A stretch of DNA of 44,753 bases from a virus (Duplodnaviria; Heunggongvirae; Uroviricota; Caudoviricetes), in IMG/VR virus record IMGVR_UViG_2917860307_000001, positions 1 through 44,753 of that record, one strand, 5' to 3'. The notes beneath the pieces are model-generated. The model was not told where the DNA came from. It saw nothing but the letters and a program-made list of their open reading frames with translations, and ran no database searches. The position numbers were made by a program, and so were the translations under genes. Positions 475 to 27,425 of this stretch are shown one piece after another (within the stretch, counting starts at the first letter, position 1; every line of letters starts with the position of its first letter).

Positions 475-496
475 AAAAGTAATATTCAGGGATGAC

Positions 497-1045: not shown

Positions 1046-1078
1046 CCCGTATATACACGGGTTATTCATGGTTTTAGT

Positions 1079-1351: not shown

Positions 1352-1387
1352 AATTTTCTCCATCAAAACCGGCTGCACCCGGGAAAA

Positions 1388-3217: not shown

Positions 3218-3345
3218 TTCGTTCTCCACTTTATATGCGCTGCACCGCGCTGAATTTTGGTAAAAGGAAGCCCTCACCATCCGGCGATTATTGAGTAAAT
3301 TATGTTTCCATAAATGCCCCCGCAGGGGCATTTGCAGTAATGAAA

Positions 3346-4170: not shown

Positions 4171-4235
4171 AATAAGTCCTCACTATATAAAGATATTCAG
4201 TGATGAGATAAATAATCAGTTTATTAAGAACGATA

Positions 4236-4598
4236 TTAACGACCTGCTGCGCGGAGTTTTCCGTCAGGCTCACCGGCAAGAGTCAGTAATTGTCCTTGGT
4301 CTTCCTGCAGAATAGTCAGGCGACCACCGCGATTGACATACATCGGCGTTTCGGTGGTGTCTTCTTCGGAAATTTTCCCGCGGTTAGTCGGGCGAACATA
4401 TGAGAGTTTGTGTTTGATTTTCACACGGTTCTCATCAAACGGTTCGATTTCCAGGTTGAGTGAGACCTTACCTTTGGTTTTCGTGTTCATCACACCGGAA
4501 GCGACTTCACTGAGAACTGCGCCGATTTTGGTTTCAAATACGCCGCCGTCCAGCTCCCCGATAAATGCCTGCACATCAGTACTGCGTTCGCTAGCCAT
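4236..4598 (-). CDS. YfdP-like hypothetical protein
   Basis: Start at MASERSTDVQ (ATG 4598, GAGGAG RBS) gives 120 aa; first gene of the leftward early operon. Confidence 0.5.
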   Translation of the reverse strand: MASERSTDVQAFIGELDGGVFETKIGAVLSEVASGVMNTKTKGKVSLNLEIEPFDENRVKIKHKLSYVRPTNRGKISEEDTTETPMYVNRGGRLTILQEDQGQLLTLAGEPDGKLRAAGR

Positions 4599-4646
4599 TT
4601 TGCTGCTCCTCATCATATCGACCCTGCAAGGTCGGTTAGTTTCTCC

Positions 4647-4746
4647 ACAAAACAGAGAAGAACACCTGCGGTGACAGCCGCCCGGATGGATTGGGTTATG
4701 AGCCCGTCGTCCGGTGATGCTCTTCTCTGTTTTGTAAAAAGAGCGG
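4647..4746 (-). promoter_or_regulatory. Early-left leader element: boxA-like CGCTCTTTTTA followed by an 18-bp-stem hairpin (arms 4647-4664 and 4718-4735)
   Basis: Read on the minus strand: GGTACCGCTCTTTTTAC then a 17/18 complementary inverted repeat enclosing about 53 nt, ending about 50 nt upstream of the first early-left gene. Confidence 0.3.
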
Positions 4747-5230
4747 TACCAGCCGGAAGCAAGTGTACAAACTGGTACCGCCAAAGCAGTGGCTGTTGTG
4801 GCGGGATTGTCACTCAGGCGTATGGTCAGCCTGACAATCCGGTGTCCTCAACGGGGAAAGAGTAACCCCGCCATACTTACCGCCGCGCCATTTCGCGGAT
4901 TACCACAACGCTGAGAGCACTTAGCCAGTTACGGCACCACACTTTGTCGCGGCTCCATAAATGCTCTTATCGTTGCACCCTGGTCTCTTCCCAGGCGTCA
5001 AACCGAATCGCCACGCTGGTTAGGCGTCTTATCAGCATCATCATTGACTTGCACATTCCGGCTACCTGGTTTGTTTGCCCGAGCAAGGAGTGGATTGTCC
5101 CCTTTAACGTCCCCAGACCGCTAACGACGCATGTGCCATACGCCGTGTTACAACCAAATTTTGTTTGAATCTTGCCTGTTGCATGTTTCTTTTGGATACA
5201 TTATGTATCTCAAAGGTACATTGTCAAGTA

Positions 5231-5254
5231 TAAAAAAACCTGCCGAAGCAGGTT
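5231..5254 (-). terminator. Rho-independent terminator downstream of cI
   Basis: Hairpin AACCTGC-CGAA-GCAGGTT followed by a T-run on the minus strand, 13 nt past the cI stop. Confidence 0.55.
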
Positions 5255-5266
5255 CATAAATATTGA

Positions 5267-5941
5267 TTAGGCCTTTATTTTGTATCTTCTTGGTTTTCCC
5301 GAGAAAATCACTGTACCAATTATAGAGCAATTACCGTTGATCTTAATGTAAGGTTCAGGCCAGTTTGGGTTTAATGCTTTGAGGTAACGCTGTGTTCCAT
5401 CTTCTATCAACCGCTTGAAGGTGGTTTCGCCTGTATCGTGCATCAATGCAATAACGTCGTCACCGTGGCAGGCAGGGACTTCAGGATCAACAAAAATCAT
5501 GTCTCCCGGGCGGTACTCATCAATCATTGAATCACCAATCACCCGCAAGATATAAGTCATTTCGCCACAGGGTACAGGGCAGGGATAAGTTTCTGCTGTG
5601 CTCAAATCAACCTCAGAATAGCCAACTTCTTTCCATGCTCCGGCCTGTACCCATGATATGACAGGGACTAACGTTATTTGTTTGTTAGTGATTGAAACAT
5701 CAGGTTTTTTTGTGATGTTCGTTGTCTGGTGTTCTTGATCAAGCCATCCGACAGGCAGGTCGAAACATTTTTCGATGTGCCGTGCCATGCTGTCACCGAT
5801 ATTTTTAGTTGCACCATCTCCCATAAACCTGCTGGTCTGGGTTGGCTCGCGATCAATCATGGTGGCAAAGGAAGAATTCCCGCCAACACCATCTCTCAGT
5901 TTTCTGGCGTTAGACCGCCGGATGTCATGGACTGTTTTCAT
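5267..5941 (-). CDS. cI: CI-like repressor (HTH plus S24 LexA-like peptidase domain)
   Basis: 224 aa; N-terminal HTH region, C-terminal GDSM...catalytic-type motif; divergent from cro-like gene. Confidence 0.8.
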   Translation of the reverse strand: MKTVHDIRRSNARKLRDGVGGNSSFATMIDREPTQTSRFMGDGATKNIGDSMARHIEKCFDLPVGWLDQEHQTTNITKKPDVSITNKQITLVPVISWVQAGAWKEVGYSEVDLSTAETYPCPVPCGEMTYILRVIGDSMIDEYRPGDMIFVDPEVPACHGDDVIALMHDTGETTFKRLIEDGTQRYLKALNPNWPEPYIKINGNCSIIGTVIFSGKPRRYKIKA

Positions 5942-5956
5942 AATGAAATTAAAACC

Positions 5957-6026
5957 CTTGTACCGTTAAGGTACAAGTATCTTGAAGGTTCATTTTAATC
6001 ATGTAATATGTACATCGGAGGTACAT
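5957..6026. promoter_or_regulatory. Immunity operator/promoter region (OR-like) between cI and cro
   Basis: Inverted repeats CTTGTACC-N5-GGTACAAG (5957-5977) and ATGTAC-N7-GTACAT (6008-6026); candidate -35 TTGAAG and -10 TAATAT for rightward transcription. Confidence 0.45.
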
Positions 6027-6031
6027 ATTGT

Positions 6032-6232
6032 ATGAAAGCGTATTGGGACTCTTTAACCAAAGAACAGCAGGGCGAGTTGGCCGGAAAAGTTGGCTCAACA
6101 CCAGGCTACTTACGGCTGGTTTTCAATGGTTATAAAAAAGCCAGTTTTGTGCTGGCTAAAAAACTTGAGCAATGCACGTCAGGTGCAATTACGAAATCTG
6201 ACTTAAGACCGGATATCTATCCGAAAGATTAA
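6032..6232 (+). CDS. cro: Cro-like transcriptional regulator (YdaS-like)
   Basis: Start at MKAYWDSL (ATG 6032, GGAGGT RBS); 66 aa; divergent to cI. Confidence 0.6.
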   Translation: MKAYWDSLTKEQQGELAGKVGSTPGYLRLVFNGYKKASFVLAKKLEQCTSGAITKSDLRPDIYPKD

Positions 6233-6263
6233 CAGAACACCTTCAATTTTTAACCACAGAACG

Positions 6264-6827
6264 ATGAGGCTAACCGTGGGTAAGCATCACTGGAAAGTAG
6301 AAAAACAGCCTGAGTGGTACGTGAAAGCTGTCAGAAAAACTATCGCGGCGTTGCCGGGGGGGTACGCTGAAGCTGCTGAGTGGCTGGATGTAACAGAGAA
6401 CGCTTTATTCAACCGCCTTCGTGCAGATGGCGATCAGATTTTCCCGCTGGGATGGGCAATGATTTTACAGCGCGCGGCTGGCACTCACTACATTGCGGAT
6501 GCTGTCGCACAGTCTGCTGGTGGGGTGTTTGTATCGCTTCCTGAAATTGAGGAAGTGGAGAACGCCGATATAAACCAGCGCCTGCTGGAAGTCATCGAAC
6601 AGATCGGGAGTTACTCAAAGCAGATTCGTTCGGCAATCGAAGATGGGGTAGTGGAGCCACACGAGCAGACAGCAATTAATGATGAGTTGTATCTGTCAAT
6701 TTCGAAGCTCCAGGAGCATGCAGCACTGGTCTACAAAATCTTTTGCGCTCCAGAAAAGAGTGACGCCCGCGAGTGTGCAGCTCCGGGCGTCGTGGCGTTT
6801 TGTGTCTGTGGAGAAACTAACGCATGA
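6264..6827 (+). CDS. CII-like / YdaT-family regulatory protein
   Basis: 187-aa ORF immediately after cro; family call tentative. Confidence 0.45.
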   Translation: MRLTVGKHHWKVEKQPEWYVKAVRKTIAALPGGYAEAAEWLDVTENALFNRLRADGDQIFPLGWAMILQRAAGTHYIADAVAQSAGGVFVSLPEIEEVENADINQRLLEVIEQIGSYSKQIRSAIEDGVVEPHEQTAINDELYLSISKLQEHAALVYKIFCAPEKSDARECAAPGVVAFCVCGETNA

Positions 6828-7660
6828 ACAGTTTAACGGCAAATAACCGTTTGTCGCAACAGCAGGTGGTCAGCGTCGCTGAACACCTGTTGTTACGGCA
6901 TGAATGCAGATTACCAAATCACCTGGCTGTAAGTAACCACAGAGAACTTTACCTGACTGTGGGGGGCGAGTTGTGCAGGAACTTAACCGCTGGTTTCGTG
7001 ACGGAAGAGGGCTTTATGTCCATGTTATTCGTTGGGAGCCAGAAACACAGCGCGTTATCTATCTTCGCAAAGACTACCCGCATGAGTGTTTTAGTCCTTT
7101 GTGGAAATTCAGGCGTGATTTTGTTGAGTGTGAAGGACCACCAGCACATTGATTCTGCCATTCCGGGACGTTACACTGTTCAGGCACCTTATAAAGCGGG
7201 TGCCGGGATTGGCGTCCTGGAAATGTTATCGGCGATATATGACGCGCCAGCGTCTTTTTTATCGTCTGCGTCTGCGCACACCCAAATTATGGTGGGCTGG
7301 ACGGGGGCACCGAAAGGTGCGCCGGTTTCCGATAACGCCGGTTACGCCAACCCCGTTCAGTTCACCACCAGCGAAATTGGCGTTTCCGGTGGTGAAGGTA
7401 ATTCACTGTTATCGGAGGCTGCCATCATGGCTACTGTCCCAGCCCTCTCTCGTCTGAATGATGAAGACTTACATAAACTCAGTTATGTAACAACTGCACT
7501 ACGTGCTCTGCGCAAGGTAACTCTTTCGGATCCGCAGGCGCATCAGGTTCTGGTAGAAACCCTTCTTAACTTGCAGGCTGAACGTATTCGTCTGGCGGAT
7601 AAGGCTAATTTTCATATTCACCGTCTCCTGAATATCAGCGGAGGGCATCGTCATGCTTAA
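6824..7660 (+). CDS. Hypothetical protein (possibly YdaU-like); frame integrity uncertain
   Basis: 278-aa ORF; a protein-like 59-codon alternative-frame ORF (6973-7152) begins at a G6 run at 6961-6966. Confidence 0.35.
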   Translation: MNSLTANNRLSQQQVVSVAEHLLLRHECRLPNHLAVSNHRELYLTVGGELCRNLTAGFVTEEGFMSMLFVGSQKHSALSIFAKTTRMSVLVLCGNSGVILLSVKDHQHIDSAIPGRYTVQAPYKAGAGIGVLEMLSAIYDAPASFLSSASAHTQIMVGWTGAPKGAPVSDNAGYANPVQFTTSEIGVSGGEGNSLLSEAAIMATVPALSRLNDEDLHKLSYVTTALRALRKVTLSDPQAHQVLVETLLNLQAERIRLADKANFHIHRLLNISGGHRHA

Positions 7661-7889
7661 TCCGTTGATCCTCAATATTTGCCGTTTGCTTCAGCGTAAA
7701 AAAACATCAATTCCTACAGTTGGGCAGTGGTACACCACGCCTGCAGGGCATGTTCTACGTGTTAGCCTGGTTGACCGTGAATGTCAGAAGGTGATTTGTG
7801 AACCGCTGGGCCGTAATTACCGAGTCAGTATGCCGCTTATAGCCTTTTGCTCCGGAAAAAACATGAAGCATCTCGGAGGTGCAGCATGA
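7653..7889 (+). CDS. Hypothetical protein
   Basis: 78-aa ORF in the rightward early operon. Confidence 0.3.
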   Translation: MLNPLILNICRLLQRKKTSIPTVGQWYTTPAGHVLRVSLVDRECQKVICEPLGRNYRVSMPLIAFCSGKNMKHLGGAA

Positions 7890-8704
7890 GTATGGAGCTG
7901 ATGGTTAAAGCGATGAAAATTCGAGTGGGTAATCCATTGCGAAAACTGGTTCTGATCAAGCTGGCTGATAATGCCAGCGATCAGGGTGAGTGCTGGCCCA
8001 GCTACCAGCATATTGCTGACCAGTGCGAGATTAGCAAACGTTCTGTGATGAATCATATTGCGGCCCTTTGTGAGTCCGGGCTGGTAAAAAAAGTCACCCG
8101 GAAAGGTGAAAAAGGTAACTCAAGTAATATCTATCTCCTTCATCTGGATGGTGCAGGAGATTCACTAGGGGGTAGTGCAAATAATTCACTATCTGGTGCA
8201 GCAAATTCACCAGGTAGTGCAGGAGTTGCACCAGGGGGTAGTGCAGGAGATTCACCCAGAACCAGTCACTCTTTTGAACCAGTCAAAGAACCAGTCAATG
8301 AACCAATAGCTGTTGGTGAATCTGCTGATGAGTCTGTGCGGGTTCGTTCAAACCGACCGGAATACTCTCCGGAGTTTGAACAGGCATGGCTGGCATATCC
8401 CAAACGTGCTGGTGGCAATTCAAAATCTGCAGCCTTCAAAGCCTGGAAAGCCCGTTTGAATGAGGGGGTAAACCCCGAAACCATGCTGGAAGGTGTGAAA
8501 CGCTACGCGGGCTGGATATCTGCGATGGGTAACAGCGGCACACAATTTGTTAAACAGGCTGTCACGTTCTTTGGTCCGGATCGTCATTTCGAAGAATCCT
8601 GGGAAGTTCCTGCGGTATCGGCAGCCAGATGCGAAGACCCGTACTTCAAAGCCAGTTACAACAATGTGGACTACAGCCAGATCCCGGCAGGATTCAGGGG
8701 GTGA
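7886..8704 (+). CDS. Phage replication initiation protein (N-terminal HTH, Gly/Ser-rich linker)
   Basis: Start at MSMELMVKAMK (ATG 7886, GGAGGTG RBS); N-terminal helix-turn-helix resembling phage replication proteins; imperfect DNA repeats encode the GS linker. Confidence 0.6.
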   Translation: MSMELMVKAMKIRVGNPLRKLVLIKLADNASDQGECWPSYQHIADQCEISKRSVMNHIAALCESGLVKKVTRKGEKGNSSNIYLLHLDGAGDSLGGSANNSLSGAANSPGSAGVAPGGSAGDSPRTSHSFEPVKEPVNEPIAVGESADESVRVRSNRPEYSPEFEQAWLAYPKRAGGNSKSAAFKAWKARLNEGVNPETMLEGVKRYAGWISAMGNSGTQFVKQAVTFFGPDRHFEESWEVPAVSAARCEDPYFKASYNNVDYSQIPAGFRG

Positions 8705-8706
8705 GC

Positions 8707-9192
8707 ATGAGCCTGATGAGTGAGATTCAAAAATTCATTGAAAGCAATCCTGGATGTACGACCGGTGATATTGCGAATGCGTTTGCATACTTTCCACGTC
8801 CCCGTGTACTGAATACGACCCGTAAGTTACGCCAGTGCAGACGTGTCGCTTATCGCAGTGAAGGCAAAACACACAGGCATTTTTCTCGCAAGGCTGTGTT
8901 GCCACCTGAGCCGGTGCTGAAGCATATGAGTGTGGCCAGTAAAAGCTACGTCGGCACTAATGATCAGCGGGTGATTTTGCGCCTGATTCAGCAGGCAGAA
9001 GATCTGGAGTCCAGAGGTTTATTCCGTCGTGCTGCAACGGTGTGGATGGAGGCATTCCGTGAAAGCCACTCCCAGTCAGAACGAAACAATTTTCTGGCGC
9101 GCGTGAGCGGTGCTTACGGAAAAGCAGCAAGCGCGCTGTATCGGGTGATGAGTGGTATCTGTCAGGGAATTACGTGGGGGCTTAATGAGTAA
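8707..9192 (+). CDS. PerC-family-like regulator / hypothetical protein
   Basis: Start ATG 8707; C-terminal motif LESRGLFRRAATVWMEAFRESHSQSERNNF resembles PerC-like activators. Confidence 0.4.
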   Translation: MSLMSEIQKFIESNPGCTTGDIANAFAYFPRPRVLNTTRKLRQCRRVAYRSEGKTHRHFSRKAVLPPEPVLKHMSVASKSYVGTNDQRVILRLIQQAEDLESRGLFRRAATVWMEAFRESHSQSERNNFLARVSGAYGKAASALYRVMSGICQGITWGLNE

Positions 9193-9838
9193 TAAATATT
9201 GCCAGGCGCTGGTGGAGCTGCGAAACAAACCAGCCCATGAACTGAAGGAAGTGGGCGATCAGTGGCGCACGCCGGACAACATTTTCTGGGGAATTAACAC
9301 CCTGTTTGGCCCGTTTGTTCTGGATCTGTTCACTGACGGTGATAACGCCAAATGTGCCGCGTATTACACGGCGGAAGACAACGCGCTGGCGCATGACTGG
9401 TCAGAACGTCTTGCGGAGCTTAAAGGTGCTGCCTTTGGTAATCCCCCATACAGCCGCGCCAGTCAGCATGAGGGGCAATACATCACCGGCATGCGTTACA
9501 TCATGAAACATGCCAGTGCCATGCGTGATAAGGGCGGGCGCTATGTTTTCCTGATCAAAGCTGCCACCAGCGAAGTGTGGTGGCCGGAAGACGCAGACCA
9601 TATTGCTTTTATTCGCGGGCGTATTGGTTTTGAACTGCCTGCCTGGTTTATCCCGAAGGATGAGAAGCAGGTGCCGACAGGCGCTTTCTTCGCTGGTGCT
9701 ATTGCTGTTTTCGACAAGACCTGGAAGGGAGCGGCAATCAGCTACATCGGGCGCGATGAACTTGAGGCATGTGGTGAGGCCTTTCTGGCGCAGGTTCGCC
9801 AGCAGGCTGAAAAACTGGTCAGGGAGATGGCGGCATGA
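9185..9838 (+). CDS. Phage Dam-like DNA N6-adenine methyltransferase
   Basis: Start MSNKYCQ (ATG 9185); NPPY catalytic motif (AAFGNPPYSR). Confidence 0.7.
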   Translation: MSNKYCQALVELRNKPAHELKEVGDQWRTPDNIFWGINTLFGPFVLDLFTDGDNAKCAAYYTAEDNALAHDWSERLAELKGAAFGNPPYSRASQHEGQYITGMRYIMKHASAMRDKGGRYVFLIKAATSEVWWPEDADHIAFIRGRIGFELPAWFIPKDEKQVPTGAFFAGAIAVFDKTWKGAAISYIGRDELEACGEAFLAQVRQQAEKLVREMAA

Positions 9839-10161
9839 CGACGTTAACTCAATGCCAGCAGCAGGTGCTGGATATGCTGATTTCTTACCAGAAAGAGCGT
9901 GGCTTTCCGCCAACCAATCAGGAGGTGGCAACCATGCTGGGATACCGTTCAGTGAATGCAGCGGTAGAGCATCTTCGCGCACTGGAGAAAAAAGGCGTCA
10001 TCACGATAAAGCGTGGCGTGGCCCGGGGGATAACGCTTCATACCGCGGTGAAGGACGACGACAGCGAGGCGGTCGGGATTATCCGCGCACTGCTTGCCGG
10101 TGAGGAAAACGCAAGGCTGCGTGCAACCCACTGGTTACATGAGAGGGGCCTGAAAGTATGA
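9835..10161 (+). CDS. LexA N-terminal DNA-binding-domain protein (no peptidase domain)
   Basis: 108 aa; QQVLDMLISYQKERGFPPTNQEVATMLGYRSVNAAVEHLRALEKKGVITI closely parallels the LexA N-terminal domain (recalled from memory). Confidence 0.6.
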   Translation: MTTLTQCQQQVLDMLISYQKERGFPPTNQEVATMLGYRSVNAAVEHLRALEKKGVITIKRGVARGITLHTAVKDDDSEAVGIIRALLAGEENARLRATHWLHERGLKV

Positions 10162-10547
10162 AGCTGATCCTGCCTTTTCCGCCCAGCGTGAACACGTACT
10201 GGCGACACCCCAACAAAGGGGCGTTTGCTGGTAAGAGTCTGATAAGCGCAGCGGGGCGCAAATTCCAGAGCGCGGCGTGCGCAGCAATAGTTGAGCAGTT
10301 ACGTCGTCTGCCGAAACCAACGTCGGCACCTGCTTCAGTGGAGATCGTGTTGTTTCCTCCGGATAACCGGATCCGCGATCTGGACAACTATAACAAGGCG
10401 ATGTTTGACGCCCTGACCCACGCGGGTGTGTGGGAAGACGACAGTCAGGTGAAAAGAATGCTGGTTGAGTGGGGACCGGTTATCCCGGGAGGGAAGGTCG
10501 AGATCACTATCAGTAAGTACGAGAAAACGGCGGGTGCAGCCGCCTGA
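10158..10547 (+). CDS. rusA: Holliday junction resolvase RusA
   Basis: 129 aa; typical RusA sequence (LPFPPSVNTYW...D.DNY.KA..DAL). Confidence 0.8.
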   Translation: MKLILPFPPSVNTYWRHPNKGAFAGKSLISAAGRKFQSAACAAIVEQLRRLPKPTSAPASVEIVLFPPDNRIRDLDNYNKAMFDALTHAGVWEDDSQVKRMLVEWGPVIPGGKVEITISKYEKTAGAAA

Positions 10548-10566
10548 TTAAGAGGAGAAACGAAGT

Positions 10567-11376
10567 ATGAATAATCTGATGGTCATTGATGGTATTGAAG
10601 TTCGTCGTGATGCTTATGGGCGTTACAGCCTGAACGATCTGCACAGGGCAGCCGGGGGAGAACAAAAAAACCGCCCGAAATACTGGCTCTCCAATAAGCA
10701 AACCTGTGAATTGATTGAACAACTTTTCACCGAGGGTGGAATTCCGCCTCTGGAACAAAATCAACCAGTTAGCGTCATTAATGGCGGAAATAACCAGGGG
10801 ACGTATGTCTGCAAAGAACTGGTGTATGCCTATGCAATGTGGATCAGCCCGTCATTCCATCTGAAGGTGATCCGTACTTTCGATATGGTAACCAGCGCAC
10901 CGGAAAAATTATCCGGGCAGGCTGCTGACAAGATGCAGGCTGGAGTGATTCTGCTGGACTTTATGCGCCGGGAGTTAAACCTGTCTAACTCTTCAGTGCT
11001 TGGTGCCTGTCAGAAACTCCAGGAGGCTGTTGGCTTACCGAATCTGGCACCGCGCTATGCCATTGATGCTCCTGCTGATGCACACGATGGCTCAAGTCGC
11101 CCGACACTGTCACTGAGTGCACTGCTGAAACAGTATGGTATCCGCCTGACGGCTAATCAGGCATATCACCAGATGGTGAAGCTGGGGATCGTCGAGCAGC
11201 GCGAACGATACAGCCGTACCGCGATTAACAACATCAAAAAATTCTGGTTGCTGACAGCGAAAGGCTGCATGTTCGGCAAGAACATCACCAGTCCCGCCAA
11301 TCCGCGCGAGACGCAGCCGCATTTCTTCGAATCCCGATTCCCTGAGCTGTTAAAGCTGCTCGATACCGTTCATTGA
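10567..11376 (+). CDS. KilA-N domain protein
   Basis: N-terminal KilA-N pattern (VIDGIEVRRDAYGRYSLNDL...AMWISPSFHLKV). Confidence 0.6.
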   Translation: MNNLMVIDGIEVRRDAYGRYSLNDLHRAAGGEQKNRPKYWLSNKQTCELIEQLFTEGGIPPLEQNQPVSVINGGNNQGTYVCKELVYAYAMWISPSFHLKVIRTFDMVTSAPEKLSGQAADKMQAGVILLDFMRRELNLSNSSVLGACQKLQEAVGLPNLAPRYAIDAPADAHDGSSRPTLSLSALLKQYGIRLTANQAYHQMVKLGIVEQRERYSRTAINNIKKFWLLTAKGCMFGKNITSPANPRETQPHFFESRFPELLKLLDTVH

Positions 11377-11377
11377 G

Positions 11378-12373
11378 GTGACCGTGAGAGCACTACTGAC
11401 CCCTGAAATTGCCCCGCGTATGGGGATCGTATTGTTCAGGCCAGGTTCAGAGCTGATGCCCCTGTTTATGCAGGGGCGTGTCCTGCTGGAGCCTGAGCCG
11501 GAACGTTATTCATCTTTCGCCAGTGGTGCCGTTCCGGCGGCATCACAACCGCTGGCGGATGATCCTGCCGTTCGGGCCGTGTTCCGCAATGAGGCAGTGA
11601 TCCGTCGTGCTGGTGGCGTGGAATGTCTTGAAAGCTGGTTACTTCGTGAAAAAGGCTGCCAATGGCCTCATTCCGACTGGCACAGCGAGAACATGACCAC
11701 AATGCGACACGCTCCGGGCGCAATCCGTCTGTGCTGGCACTGCGATAACCAGCTGCGCGATCAGTTCACGGAACGGCTGGAATCAATGGCAACGGATAAC
11801 TGTGCCCGCTGGGTGTTGTCTGTAGTCCGTCGGGATCTCGGTTTTGATGATAACCATGCCGTGACAATGCCGGAACTGTGCTGGTGGCTGATTCGTAATG
11901 ACCTGGCGGATGCCTTACCTGAAAGCGCAGCCCGTAAGGCGCTGAGATTACCGAAACCTGCTGTGCCGTCTGTCACCCGGGAAAGTGACCTTGTGCCTTC
12001 GGTTCCTGCCACCAGCATCATCCAGGATAAAGCGAAAAATGTGCTGGCGCTGAAAGTGGATCCGGAGTCGCCGGAGTCTTTTATGTTACGCCCAAAACGC
12101 CGCCGCTGGGTTAATGAAAAGTACACGCGCTGGGTTAAGACACAGCCGTGTGCATGTTGTGGAAAGCCTGCTGATGATCCCCACCACCTGATAGGCCACG
12201 GTCAGGGTGGAATGGGTACAAAAGCGCATGACCTCTTTGTGTTGCCTTTGTGCAGAAAGCATCACGACGAGCTGCATGCGGATACCGTGGCATTTGAAGA
12301 GAAGTATGGCTCTCAGCTGGAGCTGATATTTCGTTTTATCGATCGTGCGCTGGCAATTGGCGTATTGGCGTAA
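11378..12373 (+). CDS. DUF968 domain protein
   Basis: GTG start; C-terminal Cys/His cluster PCACCGKPADDPHHLIGHG...LPLCRKHHDELH typical of DUF968 nin-region proteins. Confidence 0.6.
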   Translation: MTVRALLTPEIAPRMGIVLFRPGSELMPLFMQGRVLLEPEPERYSSFASGAVPAASQPLADDPAVRAVFRNEAVIRRAGGVECLESWLLREKGCQWPHSDWHSENMTTMRHAPGAIRLCWHCDNQLRDQFTERLESMATDNCARWVLSVVRRDLGFDDNHAVTMPELCWWLIRNDLADALPESAARKALRLPKPAVPSVTRESDLVPSVPATSIIQDKAKNVLALKVDPESPESFMLRPKRRRWVNEKYTRWVKTQPCACCGKPADDPHHLIGHGQGGMGTKAHDLFVLPLCRKHHDELHADTVAFEEKYGSQLELIFRFIDRALAIGVLA

Positions 12374-12386
12374 GTGGAGAACGAGC

Positions 12387-12941
12387 ATGAACCTTGAAGC
12401 CTTACCAAAATATTACTCCCCAAAATCTCCAAAATTGAGCGATGACGCACCGGCGACAGGCTCAGGTGGTTTAACGATTACGGATGTGATGGCTGCGCAG
12501 GGGATGGTGCAGTCGAAAGCACCGCTTGGGTTTGCCTTATTCCTGGCAAAAGTTGGTGTTCAGGATCCTCAATTTGCGATTGAAGGTCTGCTCAATTACG
12601 CGATGGCACTGGATAACCCGACATTGAACAAATTGAGTGAAGAAACCCGGTTACAGATCATCCCTTACCTTGTGAATTTTGCCTTTGCTGATTATTCCAG
12701 GTCTGCGGCAAGTAAGGCTCGCTGTGAGCATTGTGCTGGTACTGGATTTCATAATGTATTGCGCGAAGTGGTGAAACACTCCAGAAGCGGGGAATCTGTT
12801 ATCAAGGAAGAGTGGGTGAAGGAACTATGTCAGCATTGCCATGGTAAGGGAGAAGTCAGCACAGCGTGCAGAGGGTGTAAGGGTAAAGGTATTGTCCTGG
12901 ATGAAAAAAAGAACCCGGCTTCATGGTGTGCCTGTTTATAA
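12387..12941 (+). CDS. Antitermination protein Q (as read, terminates early; see downstream +1-frame fragment)
   Basis: Start MNLEALPKYY (ATG 12387); three CxxCxGxG zinc-finger repeats; position upstream of PR'-like promoter and lysis genes. Confidence 0.6.
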   Translation: MNLEALPKYYSPKSPKLSDDAPATGSGGLTITDVMAAQGMVQSKAPLGFALFLAKVGVQDPQFAIEGLLNYAMALDNPTLNKLSEETRLQIIPYLVNFAFADYSRSAASKARCEHCAGTGFHNVLREVVKHSRSGESVIKEEWVKELCQHCHGKGEVSTACRGCKGKGIVLDEKKNPASWCACL

Positions 12942-13140
12942 GATTTGTGGGCGTTGCAATGGCAACCGGTTTAGCCGTTTACCAACCACACTGGCGCGGC
13001 ATCATGTCCAGAAACTGGTACCGGACCTGACGGATTATCAGTGGTACAAAGGATATGCAGACGTTATTAATAAACTGGTTACAAAGTGCTGGCAGGAAGA
13101 AGCGTATGCTGAATCGCAATTGAGAAAAGTGACAAGATAG
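12901..13140 (+). CDS. Probable C-terminal fragment of antiterminator Q in the +1 frame
   Basis: Overlapping ORF in +1 frame beginning at the A7 run (12904-12910); carries a fourth CxxCxG repeat (CGRCNGNR). Confidence 0.35.
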   Translation: MKKRTRLHGVPVYKICGRCNGNRFSRLPTTLARHHVQKLVPDLTDYQWYKGYADVINKLVTKCWQEEAYAESQLRKVTR

Positions 13141-13171
13141 ATAATTTTCGCCGAAGATGTCGACGTGATGC

Positions 13172-13200
13172 TTGCATTTTTCAAAAAATATGGATAAGAT
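13172..13200 (+). promoter_or_regulatory. Late promoter PR'-like
   Basis: -35 TTGCAT, 17-nt spacer, -10 TAAGAT directly downstream of Q and about 45 nt upstream of a terminator. Confidence 0.45.
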
Positions 13201-13242
13201 TTTCTCAACGATGGGCCTTGTATGTCTACCGTTGGTAAATGT

Positions 13243-13268
13243 CAAAAACCCGCTGCTGAGCGGTTTTT
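13243..13268 (+). terminator. tR'-like rho-independent terminator
   Basis: AACCCGCT-GCTG-AGCGGTT hairpin (one-base bulge) followed by T7. Confidence 0.55.
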
Positions 13269-13428
13269 TTGTGCCTGATGTCTCATGAAACTATGAAATG
13301 GATTGGTGCGTTAAACATTTTTTCTTATTATCTTTTAGATTTTGGAGAGATGGTTAACGTCTGTATTCCAGAAACTCGATGGTTATTTAATAAATTAGTT
13401 TCAATGATGCTTCTAGGTTATGACTGTA

Positions 13429-13827
13429 ATGAAAAAGGTATTAATAGCAGCGATAGGTTTTTGTTTAGTTGGTTGTGCAGGTATGAAATTACCTGAGTAT
13501 TCGCAAGTTAAAGCAAGTCCGTATTATACAGATTGCCGTGCGTTTGCCATGGATGTTTATAAAAATGATGGATACAGCAAAATTGCGAAAACTACTATCC
13601 TTAGCATGGATGATGTGAAGGCTAGATATATTGTGACAGGGTGTGTAGTTGCTATGGGGAAAAACACTGTAGAGGAAATCAAAGCTGATCTCTCTGCTAA
13701 AGGGAGTTCTTTTGGGCTTATCAGTGGAGCTTGTTCTAGTGTGGCATGTCGGGTTGATGTAGAGCAGCAAATGAACGCTTATGTACTTGGTAGTTATTAT
13801 GCTGCAAATAAAAAAATTCCCGGATAA
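13429..13827 (+). CDS. Lipoprotein (moron)
   Basis: Signal peptide with lipobox MKKVLIAAIGFCLVGCAG; markedly low-GC gene flanked by terminators; alternative start at 13420. Confidence 0.6.
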   Translation: MKKVLIAAIGFCLVGCAGMKLPEYSQVKASPYYTDCRAFAMDVYKNDGYSKIAKTTILSMDDVKARYIVTGCVVAMGKNTVEEIKADLSAKGSSFGLISGACSSVACRVDVEQQMNAYVLGSYYAANKKIPG

Positions 13828-13922
13828 AATGAAAGCAGAGTTTTAAGCAAACCTTGTTTTCGATTATATGTCGAAGATAAATGTTAGTAACGGCATAATA
13901 AGTAAATATATAGCTGTGATAG

Positions 13923-13948
13923 CAACCCGCCACTGAGCGGGTTTTTTG
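13923..13948 (+). terminator. Rho-independent terminator
   Basis: AACCCGC-CACTGA-GCGGGTT hairpin followed by T6; near-copy of the terminator at 13243. Confidence 0.55.
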
Positions 13949-14069
13949 TACCCGTAAACTTGGTGCAGTACAGTAAACACGCTGGTGGTCGTGAATACTG
14001 ACTTTTTATCTTGCTGGCTTTTTAGACAAGAGTTATTGGTATGTCATGTTAACCAGAAGGGAAAAAGAC

Positions 14070-14273
14070 ATGCTAAAACAGCAAGATATGACAGAAACCG
14101 CCGCCGCAGTCCTTCATTTCTTACCTGCTGACAAGTGGGTAACGCCACGCATGATGACGAGAACTACCGGAGTAAGCGAAGCCCGGTGCCAGTTAATACT
14201 GACTCAGTTAGTTCTGGCGGGTCTGGCGAAGGATAACGGCGGGTACGGGAATAAATTCAGACGCTGCCAGTAA
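14070..14273 (+). CDS. Small putative DNA-binding protein (winged-helix-like)
   Basis: Start MLKQQDMTE (ATG 14070, AAGGGA RBS); 67 aa. Confidence 0.35.
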   Translation: MLKQQDMTETAAAVLHFLPADKWVTPRMMTRTTGVSEARCQLILTQLVLAGLAKDNGGYGNKFRRCQ

Positions 14274-14423
14274 TGGCGGTTTCCTGCTGTGAAAATGGGC
14301 GGCTGGTGGGTGTTGGTAGCACGTGCCAGCCATTCGCTCATGCTTACTGGTCACAAGCGAACCACGGCCCACTGCTTTAGCGCAAAAGCAGAGTGAGCCT
14401 ACCAGAGTTACGCTTACTGATCC

Positions 14424-15476
14424 ATGAAAAATACTGTAAAAATAAACAGTGTTGATTTAATCAACGCTGATTGCCTGCATTTTATTCAGTCCCTGCCTGA
14501 TGATTCCATTGACCTGATTGTTACCGATCCGCCGTACTTCAAGGTGAAACCCAACGGCTGGGACAATCAGTGGAAAGGGGACGAAGATTACCTTAAGTGG
14601 CTGGACCACTGTCTGGCCCAGTTCTGGCGGGTGTTAAAACCTGCCGGAAGCCTTTACCTGTTCTGTGGGCATCGCCTGGCATCTGATATTGAGATCATGA
14701 TGCGTGAACGTTTCAACGTGCTTAACCATATCATCTGGGCGAAGCCGTCCGGACGTTGGAATGGGTGTAATAAAGAAAGTCTGCGCGCATATTTTCCTGC
14801 CACAGAGCGCGTTCTGTTTGCTGAACATTACCAAGGGCCATATCGCGGCAAAAGTGACGGCTATGCGGCAAAAGAAAGGGAACTCAAACAGCACATAATG
14901 GCACCGCTGATATCGTATTTCAGGGATGCTCGTGCCGAACTGGGTATAACGGCAAAACAAATTGCCGAAGCCACAGGTAAGAAAAATATGGTTTCCCACT
15001 GGTTTGGTGCCAGTCAGTGGCAGTTGCCGAATGAGGCTGACTATCGGAAGTTACAGGCACTGTTTTCCCGTATAGCGGCAGAGAAGTTTCAGGAACAACA
15101 ACTGGAACAACCACACCACCAGCTGGTGGCATCTTATGATTCACTGAATCGCAAATATTCTGAATTGCTGGATGAGTTTAAATCTCTCCGGCGCTATTTC
15201 TCCGTATCAGTCTCCGTGCCTTATACCGATGTCTGGATGCATAAACCCGTTCAGTTCTACCCGGGTAAACATCCGTGTGAGAAACCGGCGGATATGCTCA
15301 GGCAAATAATCAATGCCAGTAGTCGACCTGGTGATCTGGTTGCTGATTTTTTTATGGGATCCGGTTCCACAATAAAAGCAGCAATGGCGCTGGGGCGTCG
15401 GGCCTTAGGTGTTGAGCTTGAGTCAGAGCGGTTTAACCAGACAGTGAAAGAGATAAACGAGCTGGTGGGGAAATAA
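14424..15476 (+). CDS. Orphan DNA methyltransferase (N6-adenine/N4-cytosine family, DPPY motif)
   Basis: 350 aa; motif IVTDPPYF near the N-terminus and a C-terminal AdoMet-binding-like region (DFFMGSGST). Confidence 0.8.
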
Positions 15477-15482
15477 TCTGGT

Positions 15483-15506
15483 GGCCACGTCAGGTGGCCT
15501 TTTTAT
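15483..15506 (+). terminator. Rho-independent terminator
   Basis: GGCCAC-GTCAG-GTGGCC hairpin followed by T5. Confidence 0.55.
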
Positions 15507-15543
15507 TTCCATTACACAGCACCCGCATCTGCGAGGTGGGGTT

Positions 15544-15758
15544 ATGAAATCCATGGATAAGTTAACAACGGGTGTCGCCTATGGCACCTCAGCAGGTAGT
15601 GCCGGGTACTGGTTTTACAGTTGCTCGATAAAGTCACGCCCTCACAGTGGGCGGCAATAGGTGTGCTGGGTAGTCTGGTGTTTGGCCTGCTGACGTATCT
15701 GACAAATCTTTATTTCAAGATTAAAGAAGACAAGCGTAAGGCTGCACGGGGAGAGTAA
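15544..15758 (+). pseudogene. Class II holin (S21-type pinholin), frame interrupted at a T4 run (15613-15616)
   Basis: ATG 15544 with GAGGTGG RBS gives [24 protein letters not shown] then a stop; a second frame continues [47 protein letters not shown]; together about 71 aa. Confidence 0.65.
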
Positions 15759-15762
15759 TTCA

Positions 15763-16077
15763 ATGACTCAAAACTATGAACTGATTGTGAAAGGGATCCG
15801 CAATTTTGATAATAAAGTTACGGTAACTTTAGCGTTACGGGACAAAAAACGCTTTGACGGTGAAATTTTTGACCTGGACATCTCGCTGGACCGTGTTGAA
15901 GGTGCCGCGCTGGAGTTTTATGAGGCAGCAGCCAGAAGGAGCATCAGACAGGTCTTCCTGGATGTTGCTGCTGGGTTATGTGAAGGGGACGAGCTGTTGC
16001 CAGAAACGCGCCCCTGTTCAGAGGCGCGGTATACCATAAAAATTAACAGTTCTGATAACTCGATTACGGGTTGTTAG
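15763..16077 (+). CDS. DUF1327 protein (YdfR-like)
   Basis: 104-aa ORF between holin and endolysin, as in Qin-type lysis cassettes (from memory). Confidence 0.55.
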   Translation: MTQNYELIVKGIRNFDNKVTVTLALRDKKRFDGEIFDLDISLDRVEGAALEFYEAAARRSIRQVFLDVAAGLCEGDELLPETRPCSEARYTIKINSSDNSITGC

Positions 16078-16132
16078 CTTTTTGCAGTTGGCTTTCCAGT
16101 ATCTTTCATTGGTAGCATCCTGATAAATATCC

Positions 16133-16666
16133 ATGAGCGCAAAAATCAAATACGGCCTGTCAGCTGCTGTTCTGGCGCTGATTGCTGCAGGCGCGTCTGC
16201 TCCTCAAATACTTGACCAGTTTCTGGATGAAAAAGAGGGTAACCACACTACGGCATACCGCGATGGTTCCGGTATATGGACCATCTGTCGTGGTGCCACA
16301 ATGGTGGATGGTAAGCCCGTCATACCGGGAATGAAGCTGTCGAAGGAAAAATGCGACCAGGTTAACGCTATTGAACGTGATAAGGCGCTGGCATGGGTGG
16401 AGCGCAATATTAAAGTACCACTGACCGAACCACAGAAAGCGGGTATAGCGTCATTTTGTCCCTATAACATTGGCCCCGGTAAGTGTTTCCCGTCGACGTT
16501 TTATAAGCGGCTGAATGCCGGTGATCGTAAGGGCGCATGCGAGGCGATTCGCTGGTGGATAAAAGATGGTGGGCGCGATTGCCGCATACGTTCAAATAAC
16601 TGCTATGGACAGGTTATTCGTCGTGACCAGGAAAGCGCATTAGCCTGTTGGGGGATAGATCAGTGA
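16133..16666 (+). CDS. SAR endolysin (phage lysozyme with N-terminal signal-anchor-release domain)
   Basis: 177 aa; N-terminal hydrophobic SAR segment [17 protein letters not shown] followed by a lysozyme-like domain with the EG-x-T-AYRD catalytic-region pattern. Confidence 0.8.
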
Positions 16667-17100
16667 GCAGAGTCGCCGCGATTATTTATGCTCTGGTTAT
16701 CTGCATCATCGTCTGCCTGTCATTGGCTGTTAATCATTACCGTGATAACGCCATCGCCTACAAAGAACAGCGCGATAAGGCCGCATCCATTATCGCTGAC
16801 ATGCAGAAACGTCAACGTAATGTAGCTGAACTCGATGCCAGATATACAAAGGAGCTTGCTGATGCTAACGCGACTATCGAAAGTCTCCGTGCTGATGTTT
16901 CTGCTGGGCGTAAGCGCCTGCAAGTCGCCGCCACCTGTGCAAAGTCAACGACCGGAGCCAGCGGCATGGGCGATGGAGAAAGCCCAAGACTTACAGCAGA
17001 TGCTGAACTCAATTATTACCGTCTCAGAAGTGGAATCGACAGGATAACCGCGCAGGTTAACTACCTGCAGGAGTACATCAGGACGCAATGCCTGAAATAA
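16663..17100 (+). CDS. i-spanin Rz
   Basis: Close similarity to lambda Rz N-terminus (recalled: [36 protein letters not shown]); GTG start at 16663 assumed. Confidence 0.75.
16862..17047 (+). CDS. o-spanin Rz1 (lipoprotein embedded in +1 frame of Rz)
   Basis: Embedded ORF with lipobox LLGVSAC and proline-rich mature region. Confidence 0.65.
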
Positions 17101-17131
17101 TTTTTTTGCAAATCACAAAGTCAATTTAATG

Positions 17132-17188
17132 AGCCTCGCGATGCGGGGCTTTTTGCAATAAATGCGTACCGCAACGCATGTTTTTTAC
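17132..17188 (+). terminator. Two tandem hairpin/T-run terminator candidates after the lysis cassette
   Basis: GCCTCGC-GAT-GCGGGGC + T5 and AATGCGT-ACCGCA-ACGCAT + T6. Confidence 0.4.
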
Positions 17189-17301
17189 ACCGAACCTGCC
17201 CCTTTGGAATGGGCCTTTGAGGATACCAGTTAGTGCTGGCGAGCCTCGGTGGGCTGGTTTCCTGTGCGGCAAAGGTTCATTTCAAAGAGTAGGTACACGC
17301 T

Positions 17302-17799
17302 ATGAAATCATTAACCCTCTTCAATCAACCAATTCGTATCGGTGAAGATGGCATGATCTGCCTCACTGATATGTGGAAAGCCAGTGGTAAAAGTGAATCT
17401 GAATCTCCGTACCACTACCTGCGAAACAAGCAGACCAAAGAGTTCTTAGCCGAGCTGGAGAAAAACCACGAATCTGTGGTTTTTACTGAGCGCGGTGTAC
17501 ACGGTGGAACATATGGCGGGAAGTTTGTTGCTTATGATTATGCAGCATGGCTAAACCCCGGATTTAAATATGCAGCCTATAAAGTCCTGGATGACTACTT
17601 CACCGGAGAACTTCAGCATCGCAACAGCTTAAGTGCGCAGCTCAATATGAAGTGTCATGAGTTTGATCAGAAAAAAGATATGGCGAGCTTCTGTGGACAA
17701 GGGCTGGCGGCATGGCGCTATACGAAGCCAGTGTTGGTCGCTGAGATTAACTCCCTGGCTAACCAGCTGCAGATAACGATCCCCGGGCTTCCGGGATGA
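17302..17799 (+). CDS. KilA-N domain protein (second copy)
   Basis: 165 aa; KilA-N-like pattern including WLNPGFKYAAYKVLDDY. Confidence 0.45.
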   Translation: MKSLTLFNQPIRIGEDGMICLTDMWKASGKSESESPYHYLRNKQTKEFLAELEKNHESVVFTERGVHGGTYGGKFVAYDYAAWLNPGFKYAAYKVLDDYFTGELQHRNSLSAQLNMKCHEFDQKKDMASFCGQGLAAWRYTKPVLVAEINSLANQLQITIPGLPG

Positions 17800-18053
17800 G
17801 TGATCGTGTCATTGAATGCGCCTCCAGAGCGGGGCGCGACTTCTCAGAGTTCATGAAAGGCGAGAAGGGCATGATGGAAGCATTGGCCTCGGTGGATGAG
17901 TTTGGCGAGCAGCTGCGCCTCAACGGCTGTGTCAATCATCACTTTGTTAGCTACATGATGCGGAACTCGATCATGCAGGCATTCATGGACATGGCAAAAG
18001 CCGAGAGGAAAGAAGAGCGCCGGCGTAAGCGAGCGGAAGCAAAAGCGAAGTAG
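17796..18053 (+). CDS. Hypothetical protein
   Basis: 85-aa ORF coupled to upstream gene; basic C-terminus. Confidence 0.35.
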   Translation: MSDRVIECASRAGRDFSEFMKGEKGMMEALASVDEFGEQLRLNGCVNHHFVSYMMRNSIMQAFMDMAKAERKEERRRKRAEAKAK

Positions 18054-18661
18054 CCATTACAAAGCCCATCTACTGGTGGGCTTGATAATGGCTTATACCC
18101 TACACGGGATAACTTAACTGATATCCCTTTTAACGGATAAAGGTATTCAAGCCTGACACATCATGCGCTGTATCGTCGCTGTATTCCTGCATTAACCATG
18201 ACCGTAGCCCGACGGGGAACTCCTTCTGCGCGAGTGTGCGGGAATAATCAAAAACGATGCACACCGGGTTTTTACCGCGCTAATGATTCGCGGGTTTGTC
18301 CCTCATGCTCGCCAGTCCTGTGCGGGGGTGGAAGAAACAGGACACTCACACAGATTCTTGTGGGTCGATGCTATTCCTTTCTGGATTATCCCGATGCCAT
18401 TCATGCAAGGGCTGTATCAGACGTTCGTCATGGCTGTCAGGCTGACGGGTCCTCCCGGTGGGGTGGCCTGCCACGGGGCGGGAGCGTCGCGGAAAAAGGC
18501 TAGTTTTTGAAATTTCATTCGTCATCACCACTACTGTAATGTATTGATATTACAGTGGTTTTATTTTTGTGGTGTCGATTTTGATTGTTTTTTGTTCATC
18601 GCTAACACCGTTTGCCTAAAGTTGTTCGCAAGATGCATGTTTAAAACATTCTGGAGCGGGT

Positions 18662-19156
18662 ATGGATCGAGAGTTAAAAAATCTGACGCTGAATATCAGT
18701 CAACTGGCGGCACTGTCAGGTGTACATCGCCAGACTGCTGCGGCAAGGCTGCAAAATCTACCCGTTGCAGGGGGGCATGAAAGCAACCTCAAGCTTTATC
18801 GGGTGGTTGATATTGTGTCGGCATTTCTGGCATTACCACCGCCGGTTGCAGAAGGCGAAATGGACGCGCATGAGCGCAAAGCCTGGTATCAGTCTGAACG
18901 TGAGCGTCTTAAGTTCGAACAGGAAACGGCACAACTCATTCCGGCCAGTGATGTCAGACGGGAGTTTGCCATCTGGGCAAAAGCGGTCGTGCAGGTGCTG
19001 GAGACATTACCGGATATTCTTGAACGTGACTGCGGTCTGCAGCCTGCCGCTGTGAGCCGTGTTCAGTCCATTATTGATGATCTGCGCGATCAGATAGCCC
19101 TGCGGGTGACTGAAGCAGGTGCGGATGATGAGGAGGAATTACAGCAGGAGGAGTAA
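18662..19156 (+). CDS. Terminase small subunit
   Basis: 164 aa, N-terminal HTH-like segment (LTLNISQLAALSGVHRQTAAARL), directly upstream of and overlapping terminase large subunit. Confidence 0.7.
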   Translation: MDRELKNLTLNISQLAALSGVHRQTAAARLQNLPVAGGHESNLKLYRVVDIVSAFLALPPPVAEGEMDAHERKAWYQSERERLKFEQETAQLIPASDVRREFAIWAKAVVQVLETLPDILERDCGLQPAAVSRVQSIIDDLRDQIALRVTEAGADDEEELQQEE

Positions 19157-21258
19157 TGCTGAATCAGGAAACCGCAAAGGCAGCACGAACCGATTCAGGT
19201 TATATCCTTCGCGCACCGAGACGAATGCGGGTTGCTGATGCCGTTGCTCAGTATATGCGGGTGCCCATGGGGGCAGGGAACTCAGTCCCGTGGGATCCGC
19301 TGGTGGCACCGTATGTTATTGAGCCGATGAACTGCCTGGCCTCGCGTGAATACGACGCAGTGATATTTGTTGGCCCGGCACGAACCGGCAAGACTATCGG
19401 CCTGATTGACGGCTGGGTGATTTACAACGTGATTTGCGATCCTGCTGATATGCTGATTATTCAGATGACGGAGGAAAAAGCCCGCGAACACTCCAAAAAA
19501 CGACTCGCCAGAACGTTTCGCGTCAGCCCGGAAGTGGTCAGTCGCCTGAGTCCGAACAAAAATGACAACAACGTTTATGACAGAACATTCCTTGCTGGTA
19601 ACTACCTGAAAATCGGCTGGCCGTCAGTCAATATCATGTCCTCATCAGATTATAAATGCGTCGCGCTGACGGATTATGACCGTTTTCCGGAAGATATTGA
19701 TGGCGAGGGGGATGCTTTCTCTCTTGCCTCAAAACGTACCACAACATTTATGTCCAGTGGTATGACGCTGGTGGAGAGTTCCCCCGGCAGGGATGTGAAG
19801 GATGTGAAATGGCGACGGACTTCACCGCATGAGGCTCCACCAACCACGGGGATACTATCGCTCTATAACCGTGGCGATCGCCGTCGCTGGTACTGGCCCT
19901 GTCCACACTGTGGTGAGTATTTTCAGCCCTGCGGCGATGTGGTTGCTGGTTTCCGTGATATTGCCGATCCCGTGCTGGCAAGTGAGGCGGCTTATATTCA
20001 GTGTCCTTCCTGTTCAGGACGGATTATGCCTGAACAAAAACGTGAGCTGAACGGACGTGGGGTCTGGTTGCGGGATGGTGAATCCATCAATGCGGATGGC
20101 AGTCGTTATGGTGATCCCCGACGCTCACGTATTGCGTCATTCTGGATGGAGGGTCCGGCAGCTGCTTACCAGACACTCTCGCAACTCGTTTACAAACTGC
20201 TTACTGCAGAACAGGAATACGAGACAACCGGAAGTGAAGAAACACTCAAGACGGTTATCAATACCGACTGGGGATTACCTTATCTTCCCCGCGCCAGCAT
20301 GGAGCAACGAAAAAGTGAACTGCTTGAGCAGCGGGCAGAGCCAGTTCCTTCCCGCAGTGTGCCGGATGGCGTTAATTTCCTTGTGGCGACAGTGGATGTG
20401 CAGGCGGGACGTCATCGCCGTTTTGTGGTTCAGGTAACGGGCTATGGCAGCCGTGGCGAACGCTGGATTATTGATCGTTACAACATCACGCAGTCATTGC
20501 GCGGTGACAGCGACGGGGAGAGCCAGCGAATTGATCCGGCCAGCTATCCGGAAGACTGGGATGTCCTGCTGACGGATGTTTTTCATAAAAGCTGGCCGCT
20601 GGCCTCCGATCCTTCTCAACAAATGCGACTGATGGCAATGGCGGTGGACTCCGGCGGTGAAGACGGGGTCACTGATAATGCCTATAAATTCTGGCGTCGT
20701 TGCCGTCGTGATGGCCTTGGTAAACGTATTTACCTGTTTAAGGGCGACAGCATCCGGCGCGCAAAACTGATCACCCGTACATTCCCTGATAACACCGGAC
20801 GAACGGGCCGACGGGCGCAGGCCGCAGGTGATGTGCCGCTCTGGCTTCTTCAGACGGATGCACTGAAAGACCGGGTGAATAACGCGTTATGGCGTGACTC
20901 GCCAGGTCCCGGCTATGTGCATTTCCCTGACTGGCTGGGGAGCTGGTTTTACGACGAACTGACGTATGAAGAGCGGAGCAGTGACGGGAAATGGAGTAAG
21001 CCGGGTCGCGGTGCCAACGAAGCTTTTGACCTGATGGTGTATGCCGAGGCTCTGGTCATTCTGCATGGATACGAAAAGATCCGCTGGCCGGATGCACCGG
21101 AGTGGGCGAGCCGGGAAACCTGGCTGGAGTGTGTCCCGGACAGTACCGAACCGTCACCCTCACCGGAACCGGTATCCACGCCTGTTAAAAAACAAAAACG
21201 GAAGAAAACAGTAACTGACGATGTTAACCCCTGGCTGACTTCCGGAGGATGGTTATGA
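19156..21258 (+). CDS. Terminase large subunit (GpA family)
   Basis: 700 aa; Walker A-like GPARTGKT; overall lambda gpA-like organisation. Confidence 0.9.
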   Translation: MLNQETAKAARTDSGYILRAPRRMRVADAVAQYMRVPMGAGNSVPWDPLVAPYVIEPMNCLASREYDAVIFVGPARTGKTIGLIDGWVIYNVICDPADMLIIQMTEEKAREHSKKRLARTFRVSPEVVSRLSPNKNDNNVYDRTFLAGNYLKIGWPSVNIMSSSDYKCVALTDYDRFPEDIDGEGDAFSLASKRTTTFMSSGMTLVESSPGRDVKDVKWRRTSPHEAPPTTGILSLYNRGDRRRWYWPCPHCGEYFQPCGDVVAGFRDIADPVLASEAAYIQCPSCSGRIMPEQKRELNGRGVWLRDGESINADGSRYGDPRRSRIASFWMEGPAAAYQTLSQLVYKLLTAEQEYETTGSEETLKTVINTDWGLPYLPRASMEQRKSELLEQRAEPVPSRSVPDGVNFLVATVDVQAGRHRRFVVQVTGYGSRGERWIIDRYNITQSLRGDSDGESQRIDPASYPEDWDVLLTDVFHKSWPLASDPSQQMRLMAMAVDSGGEDGVTDNAYKFWRRCRRDGLGKRIYLFKGDSIRRAKLITRTFPDNTGRTGRRAQAAGDVPLWLLQTDALKDRVNNALWRDSPGPGYVHFPDWLGSWFYDELTYEERSSDGKWSKPGRGANEAFDLMVYAEALVILHGYEKIRWPDAPEWASRETWLECVPDSTEPSPSPEPVSTPVKKQKRKKTVTDDVNPWLTSGGWL

Positions 21259-21467
21259 ACCAGAATGATATCGAAGCCATGATTCAGCGTTATACGGAAG
21301 CTGAAATGGCGGTGCTGGACGGAAAATCCGTCACCTTTAATGGTCAGCAGATGACCATGGAAAACTTATCTGAGATCCGGCAGGGACGGCAGGAGTGGGA
21401 GCGCCGCCTTGCGGCTCTGATTACACGACGACGGGGGCATCCCGGGTACCGGCTGGCGAGGTTCTGA
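21255..21467 (+). CDS. Head-tail joining protein (gpW-like)
   Basis: 70 aa; C-terminal RRRGHPGY resembles lambda W (recalled ...RRRGPAGFYV). Confidence 0.65.
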   Translation: MNQNDIEAMIQRYTEAEMAVLDGKSVTFNGQQMTMENLSEIRQGRQEWERRLAALITRRRGHPGYRLARF

Positions 21468-26625: not shown

Positions 26626-26635
26626 GGAGGTGGCA

Positions 26636-27379: not shown

Positions 27380-27399
27380 CAGGACGATACTCATCATTT

Positions 27400-27425
27400 G
27401 CCCCGGTTATCCGGGGCTTTTTTTG
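27400..27425 (+). terminator. Hairpin/T-run after major tail gene
   Basis: GCCCCGG-TTAT-CCGGGGC followed by T7. Confidence 0.5.

Follow-up and report, generated by a model that had tools for sequence, protein, structure and literature searches.

The antiterminator Q of phage lambda (PDB 4MO1 and 7UBJ-7UBN) is a protein of 207 aa that contains two CxxC motifs, CRDCHGTG and CGRCKGVG. The lambda Q gene has ninI as its upstream neighbour and is located directly upstream of a promoter region that carries CTCAACGATGGG and is followed by a terminator. Inside CTCAACGATGGG, AACGAT is the sigma-dependent pause element of lambda, and the lambda 6S RNA is approximately 190 nt long. A second described group of Q proteins, the YdfT/QuuQ type, includes E. 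coli WP_001047112.1 and proteins of phages SfV, mEp460 and Ayreon and of Stx2c phages. The homologous Q coding sequences of E. coli prophages, phage Ayreon and SfV are 753 nt long according to their annotations. The stretch of DNA analysed in the present study (hereafter the window, 44,753 nt) contains a Q locus of the same general arrangement, in which the Q reading frame as it stands in the sequence is split at a run of adenines. Does this split represent a property of the organism or of the sequence record?

The Q frame as read extends on the + strand from the ATG at 12387 to the stop codon at 12939-12941 and encodes 184 aa that match PF03589 (E=1.3e-25) and, weakly, DnaJ_CXXCXGXG. This frame contains three CxxCxGxG motifs, CEHCAGTG (residue 113), CQHCHGKG (residue 148) and CRGCKGKG (residue 161), and runs through an A7 homopolymer at 12904-12910 (+ strand). 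The final ~10 residues of the 184-aa frame (KNPASWCACL) result from out-of-frame read-through past the A run. The remainder of Q resides in the +1 frame, which is open from 12841 to the stop codon at 13138-13140. Its segment at 12911-13140 (+ strand) encodes CGRCNGNR and the C-terminal 75 residues, matches PF03589 on its own (E=1.3e-23) and yields a product that aligns to residues 117-207 of chain Q in 7UBM, with the C-terminal 75 residues homologous to lambda Q 131-207. The N-terminal and C-terminal fragments score 89.7 and 83.4 bits, respectively, against PF03589 (Antitermination protein Q), for which the curated cut-off is 26.7 bits. Because both fragments independently match this family far above the threshold, the locus represents a single split gene rather than a chance pattern of open reading frames.

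The preliminary description of this DNA had reported seven adenines at 12904-12910 that split a Q-like open reading frame, as well as three CxxCxGxG repeats and a stop at 12941, and our reading of the sequence agrees on these points. A fourth repeat, CGRCNGNR, is located in the +1 frame as it had stated, although the motif ends in R instead of G. Deletion of one A does fuse the fragments into a four-motif protein, but this protein is 250 aa long and not ~260 aa. A truncated product would also lack essential parts, in line with that description: it would be missing the C-terminal 75 residues (lambda Q 131-207) together with the fourth Cys motif. Since the lost stretch includes the second Cys pair of lambda Q, a Q product without the part after the frameshift is predicted to be, very probably, inactive.

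Removal of one A generates a gene at 12387-13140 (+ strand) that encodes a lambda-type antiterminator Q (250 aa, 753 nt). The repaired 250-aa protein is a residue-for-residue match to a public protein that occurs on at least 1000 contigs. In a sequence search against solved structures, the only Q structures returned were those of lambda Q; the repaired protein matched chain Q of 7UBM over both halves with E=2.9e-37 and ~42% identity, and 4MO1 and 7UBJ were also matched. The CxxC motifs of Q align with CRDCHGTG and CGRCKGVG of lambda Q, and the second of these pairs falls in the +1 frame as read. Four CxxCxGx(G/R) motifs with spacings of 35, 13 and 26 residues occupy residues 113-194 of repaired Q, compared with two such motifs in lambda Q. 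Relative to lambda Q, an insertion of ~40 residues adds two CxxCxGxG motifs, and four motifs in a DnaJ-like arrangement could hold two zinc ions. This comparison suggests that the four-motif Q carries a DnaJ-like module for two zinc ions inserted in the lambda Q fold. As judged from its sequence, the true gene is an ordinary lambda-type Q antiterminator of the YdfT/QuuQ-type subgroup, a very common group whose members have four such motifs.

The A7 allele was sought in a broad set of relatives. The Q region has matches in 3,409 E. coli records, from a set of 5,426 complete genomes, and in 68 phage records. In an alignment with Q relatives, A6 stands opposite the A7 of the window, and A6 is present in 120 of 120 panel loci. 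A 71-nt query centred on the A run matched 861 E. coli records, none of which is identical to the query, and the 117 closest of these 861 records differ from it solely by a one-base gap. A 38-nt A7 query, which can be seeded by A7 carriers only, returned no match in the E. coli genomes. Exact pattern scans found no A7 copy in IMG/VR (versus at least 120 A6 copies), none among GTDB species representatives and none in JGI metagenomes. Furthermore, an exact look-up located neither the as-read 184-aa product nor the as-read 99-aa product of Q among ~15 billion proteins, and every Q homologue whose annotation or gene calls were read contains a single 753-nt open reading frame. Given that the gene is otherwise unchanged, the extra A is either extremely recent or not real.

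The distribution of the A run also bears on a functional interpretation of A7, in which the run would act as a programmed recoding site and produce low, tunable levels of full-length Q via slippage during transcription or a +1 slip of tRNA-Lys on the ribosome. In E. coli, A-runs support slippage of both the polymerase and the ribosome, as in dnaX and IS elements, and the zero frame of Q reads GA-A AAA AAG, a classic slippery heptamer. However, the heptamer favours a -1 shift into ORF 12923-13030, the wrong frame, whereas the continuation of Q requires a +1 or -2 shift. Moreover, the A7 run and the two-frame layout are not conserved, as all homologues inspected combine A6 with one uninterrupted open reading frame, and another assembly of the same strain, described below, also has A6. 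We thus rejected a programmed frameshift or slippage site on the grounds that A7 occurs in no homologue and that the heptamer slips the wrong way, and we give recoding practically no credence.

The window corresponds to positions ~48841-93593 of contig PDIF01000060.1 (GCA_004745355.1) from Escherichia sp. E2748, to which it is 100% identical without gaps over the aligned stretches 1-16704 and 33340-44753. Flow-based sequencing platforms are prone to miscalling homopolymer lengths. PDIF00000000 is the assembly of the Escherichia cryptic clade II strain E2748 and was built with MIRA and SPAdes from single-end Ion Torrent reads of 35-400 nt at 45x coverage (PMC6639607). The host is not E. coli proper, given that the dusA-pspG end of the window shares only 90-95% identity with any of the 5,426 E. 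coli genomes, and dusA ~92%.

For strain E2748, a second data set is provided by GCA_005781125.1 (VATP01; proteins labelled Escherichia sp. E2748) together with the Logan contigs of SRR8835203. A literature search found no paper that describes the VATP01 assembly or SRR8835203, and the platform of VATP01 is undocumented there. The window and this second data set overlap over 34,353 bp, in which one substitution and nine single-base indels separate them. Stretch 1-9908 has no substitution and one indel (9101); stretch 10218-13973 has one substitution (11298) and three indels (12904, 13261 and 13810). No substitution is found in the remaining stretches, which contain one indel at 15612 (14303-22077), three at 27418, 29721 and 29811 (25646-35339) and one at 41629 (41534-44753). 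In particular, contig VATP01000034.1 of E2748 carries A6, and Q is called on it as a 250-aa gene.

These observations bear on the functional conclusion of the preliminary description, according to which Q is truncated and late-gene antitermination is impaired. Impaired antitermination in this organism is unsupported because the second assembly of the same strain contains A6 and an intact 250-aa Q and because the window derives from an Ion Torrent draft with eight further single-base indels. The outcome named beforehand as speaking against truncation was an A run of another length that brings the gene back into one frame, and the A6 run of the second E2748 assembly is in effect that outcome. 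We are therefore highly confident that the Q split stems from a miscalled homopolymer length in the Ion Torrent draft, with the seventh A as an overcall, and that the organism has A6 and an intact 753-nt Q gene. The features of an artefact coincide at this site: the platform is error-prone, the indel is absent from the second same-strain assembly, and nine indels are accompanied by a single substitution in 34,353 bp.

Q is one of several genes in the window that appear broken. When the genes of one related E. coli prophage were translated against the window, frame breaks were detected in Q, in the tape measure gene (at two sites) and in the genes for a PerC-like protein, a 141-aa lipoprotein, the EssD holin and a 95-aa protein. 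Relative to the panel, indels at 9101, 12904, 13810 and 15612 occur in the window only; window-unique indels were counted here as the net offset per cluster, given that BLAST places homopolymer gaps inconsistently. The breaks outside Q are also false. The second E2748 data set contains intact versions of the PerC-like gene (8701-9182; 159 aa), the lipoprotein gene (13420-13845), the EssD holin gene (15544-15759; 71 aa) and the tape measure gene (28137-31204; 1021 aa), and repair of the 95-aa gene (41447-41730) yields a protein identical to one of E2748. After repair, Q, the holin, the tape measure protein and the 141-aa and 95-aa proteins each match a public protein exactly. Neither tape-measure insertion is shared by any of 1,828 E. 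coli records, among which the best matches differ from the window by those two gaps only, and the as-read products of the 141-aa gene and the holin gene are absent from ~15 billion sequences. Outside coding regions, two runs contain indels relative to the second data set, namely the G run of the terminator and a T run before gpG. The indels at 29811 and 9101 are located outside long homopolymers and fit the usual pattern of Ion Torrent consensus errors less well. Upstream of the small terminase gene, the window also shows one-base deficits at 18364 and 18408-18412 compared with 12 of 13 related loci; these represent natural variation and not errors because no difference from the second E2748 assembly is seen at these positions.

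Run SRR6148327 appears to provide a view of the draft reads through another assembler. Its Logan contigs are identical to the PDIF contig except for indels, and we infer from this identity that SRR6148327 is the Ion Torrent run of E2748. The SRR6148327 contigs depart from the deposited assembly at 27418, 29811, 30914 and 37871 and share its deletion at 41629. Which indels are called from these reads depends on the assembler, given that two assemblies of apparently the same run disagree. At 41629, the difference is systematic in the reads, or conceivably real, since the Ion Torrent re-assembly repeats the deletion. A search via neighbouring proteins found no SRR6148327 Logan contig that spans the A run of Q. 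Two SRR6148327 Logan contigs end and begin within a run of A in the tape measure gene (29722-29726), and these breaks are an indirect hint that run lengths vary among the Ion reads.

Could the A7 run nevertheless be a genuine mutation? A real, very recent A6-to-A7 change would inactivate Q as part of prophage decay, for example in a mismatch-repair-deficient subclone, and would leave late genes that cannot be switched on. The simultaneous breakage of Q, holin and tape measure resembles a cryptic prophage, and the repetition of the 41629 indel by a second assembler on the same run points in the same direction. Homopolymer indels are, moreover, the typical spectrum of mismatch-repair mutators. 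Decay or a mutator background is disfavoured, however, because substitutions would accumulate too, and the second assembly, which differs by a single substitution over 34 kb, shows no break in any of the six genes. In addition, the repaired proteins each match widespread proteins exactly, which indicates that no other change occurred in them. The disagreement between two assemblers on the indels of the same run and the known tendency of Ion Torrent towards such errors also argue against a real mutation, which we regard as very unlikely. A decaying prophage in a non-coli host, as could be read from six broken genes and a dusA of ~92% identity, was likewise ruled out by the second assembly, in which the six genes are intact. 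A further and extremely unlikely reading is that the first E2748 stock to be sequenced did carry A7, so that a single homopolymer slip would silence Q together with the whole late operon and could revert at high frequency. In that case, the run would constitute a contingency switch for prophage inducibility.

The homopolymer-length error in Q has a practical implication for the use of this record. The window contains at least nine single-base indel errors that create six false pseudogenes, and any apparent frameshift in it should be compared with the second E2748 assembly (VATP01) before interpretation.

With Q restored, the locus resembles a late control region. A DUF968/HNH-like gene, which always precedes this type of Q, is located upstream at 11384-12373 (+ strand). 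Downstream of Q, alignment with lambda 44494-44809 defines a candidate late promoter PR' at 13172-13216 (+ strand), which consists of TTGCAT, 17 nt, TAAGAT and then CTCAACGATGGG. Its hexamers were picked by eye, and the promoter scanner gave no + strand listing for that site; the 12-mer CTCAACGATGGG is identical to the corresponding lambda sequence. The promoter region is followed by a tR'-like intrinsic terminator at 13250-13270 (+ strand) that contains a stem-loop and a T-run; the annotations of Ayreon and SfV also mark it as a terminator. The G run of this terminator reads GG in the window versus GGG elsewhere, and none of the 43 relatives that cover the run shows the one-base shortage. Because CTCAACGATGGG and the terminator are separated by only ~50-60 nt, a leader RNA that ends at the terminator would be far shorter than lambda 6S RNA. 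Lysis genes (holin, endolysin and Rz) and then structural genes are located 3' of the terminator. The DUF968-Q-promoter-terminator-lysis order is the standard layout of a putative Q-dependent late operon.

Homology to lambda Q allows us to propose how this operon would be switched on. Q would bind a site in the late promoter just downstream of its own gene (~13172-13216) and load onto RNA polymerase that is held at a sigma-dependent pause set by the AACGAT element. The Q-modified polymerase would then pass the terminator at 13250-13270 and go on to transcribe the lysis and structural genes. In biological terms, the locus is a standard, widespread lambda-type Q with a late promoter and a terminator. 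It contains nothing new, and its true Q is the same as an allele that is very common in E. coli prophages.

The prophage is positioned at the 5' end of dusA (41844-44753), where a tyrosine integrase gene (42154-43251, minus strand) adjoins dusA and lies directly after the DinI and tail-fibre genes. In related strains, the same int-dusA junction carries a Mu-like tail module, which indicates that different phages use this integrase and site. At the left prophage end, a SocA/Panacea-domain protein (1-474) is followed by a 182-aa protein without a Pfam match, both within 1-1045, and this pair may be a toxin-antitoxin or defence pair. GCA_004323665.1 and SRR8061821 contain a closely related prophage that shares the early region and the DUF968 gene and encodes a 121-aa PF06530-type Q instead. 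The presence of a PF06530-type Q in the position of a lambda-type Q illustrates the mosaic exchange of Q modules.

Compared with known systems, the Q of the window shares with lambda Q a conserved N-terminal segment and the same C-terminal ...VTR, and its gene, like that of lambda, lies directly upstream of a promoter region with CTCAACGATGGG and then a terminator. Unlike the 207-aa lambda Q, the protein has 250 aa and contains a ~40-residue insertion with two extra CxxCxGxG motifs. The loci also differ in that the leader from promoter to terminator is ~60 nt here, with a lambda block of ~120 nt absent from the window by alignment, and in that the upstream neighbour is a DUF968/HNH gene instead of ninI. 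With the frameshift sites of dnaX and IS911, the as-read sequence has in common an A AAA AAG heptamer in the zero frame; it differs from them in that a +1 and not a -1 shift is needed and in that the site is missing from all homologues and from the second assembly. The YdfT/QuuQ-type loci have DNA that is 96-99.6% identical to that of the window and the same DUF968-Q-terminator order. The repaired protein exactly matches one member of this group, and the extra A of the window is the sole difference.
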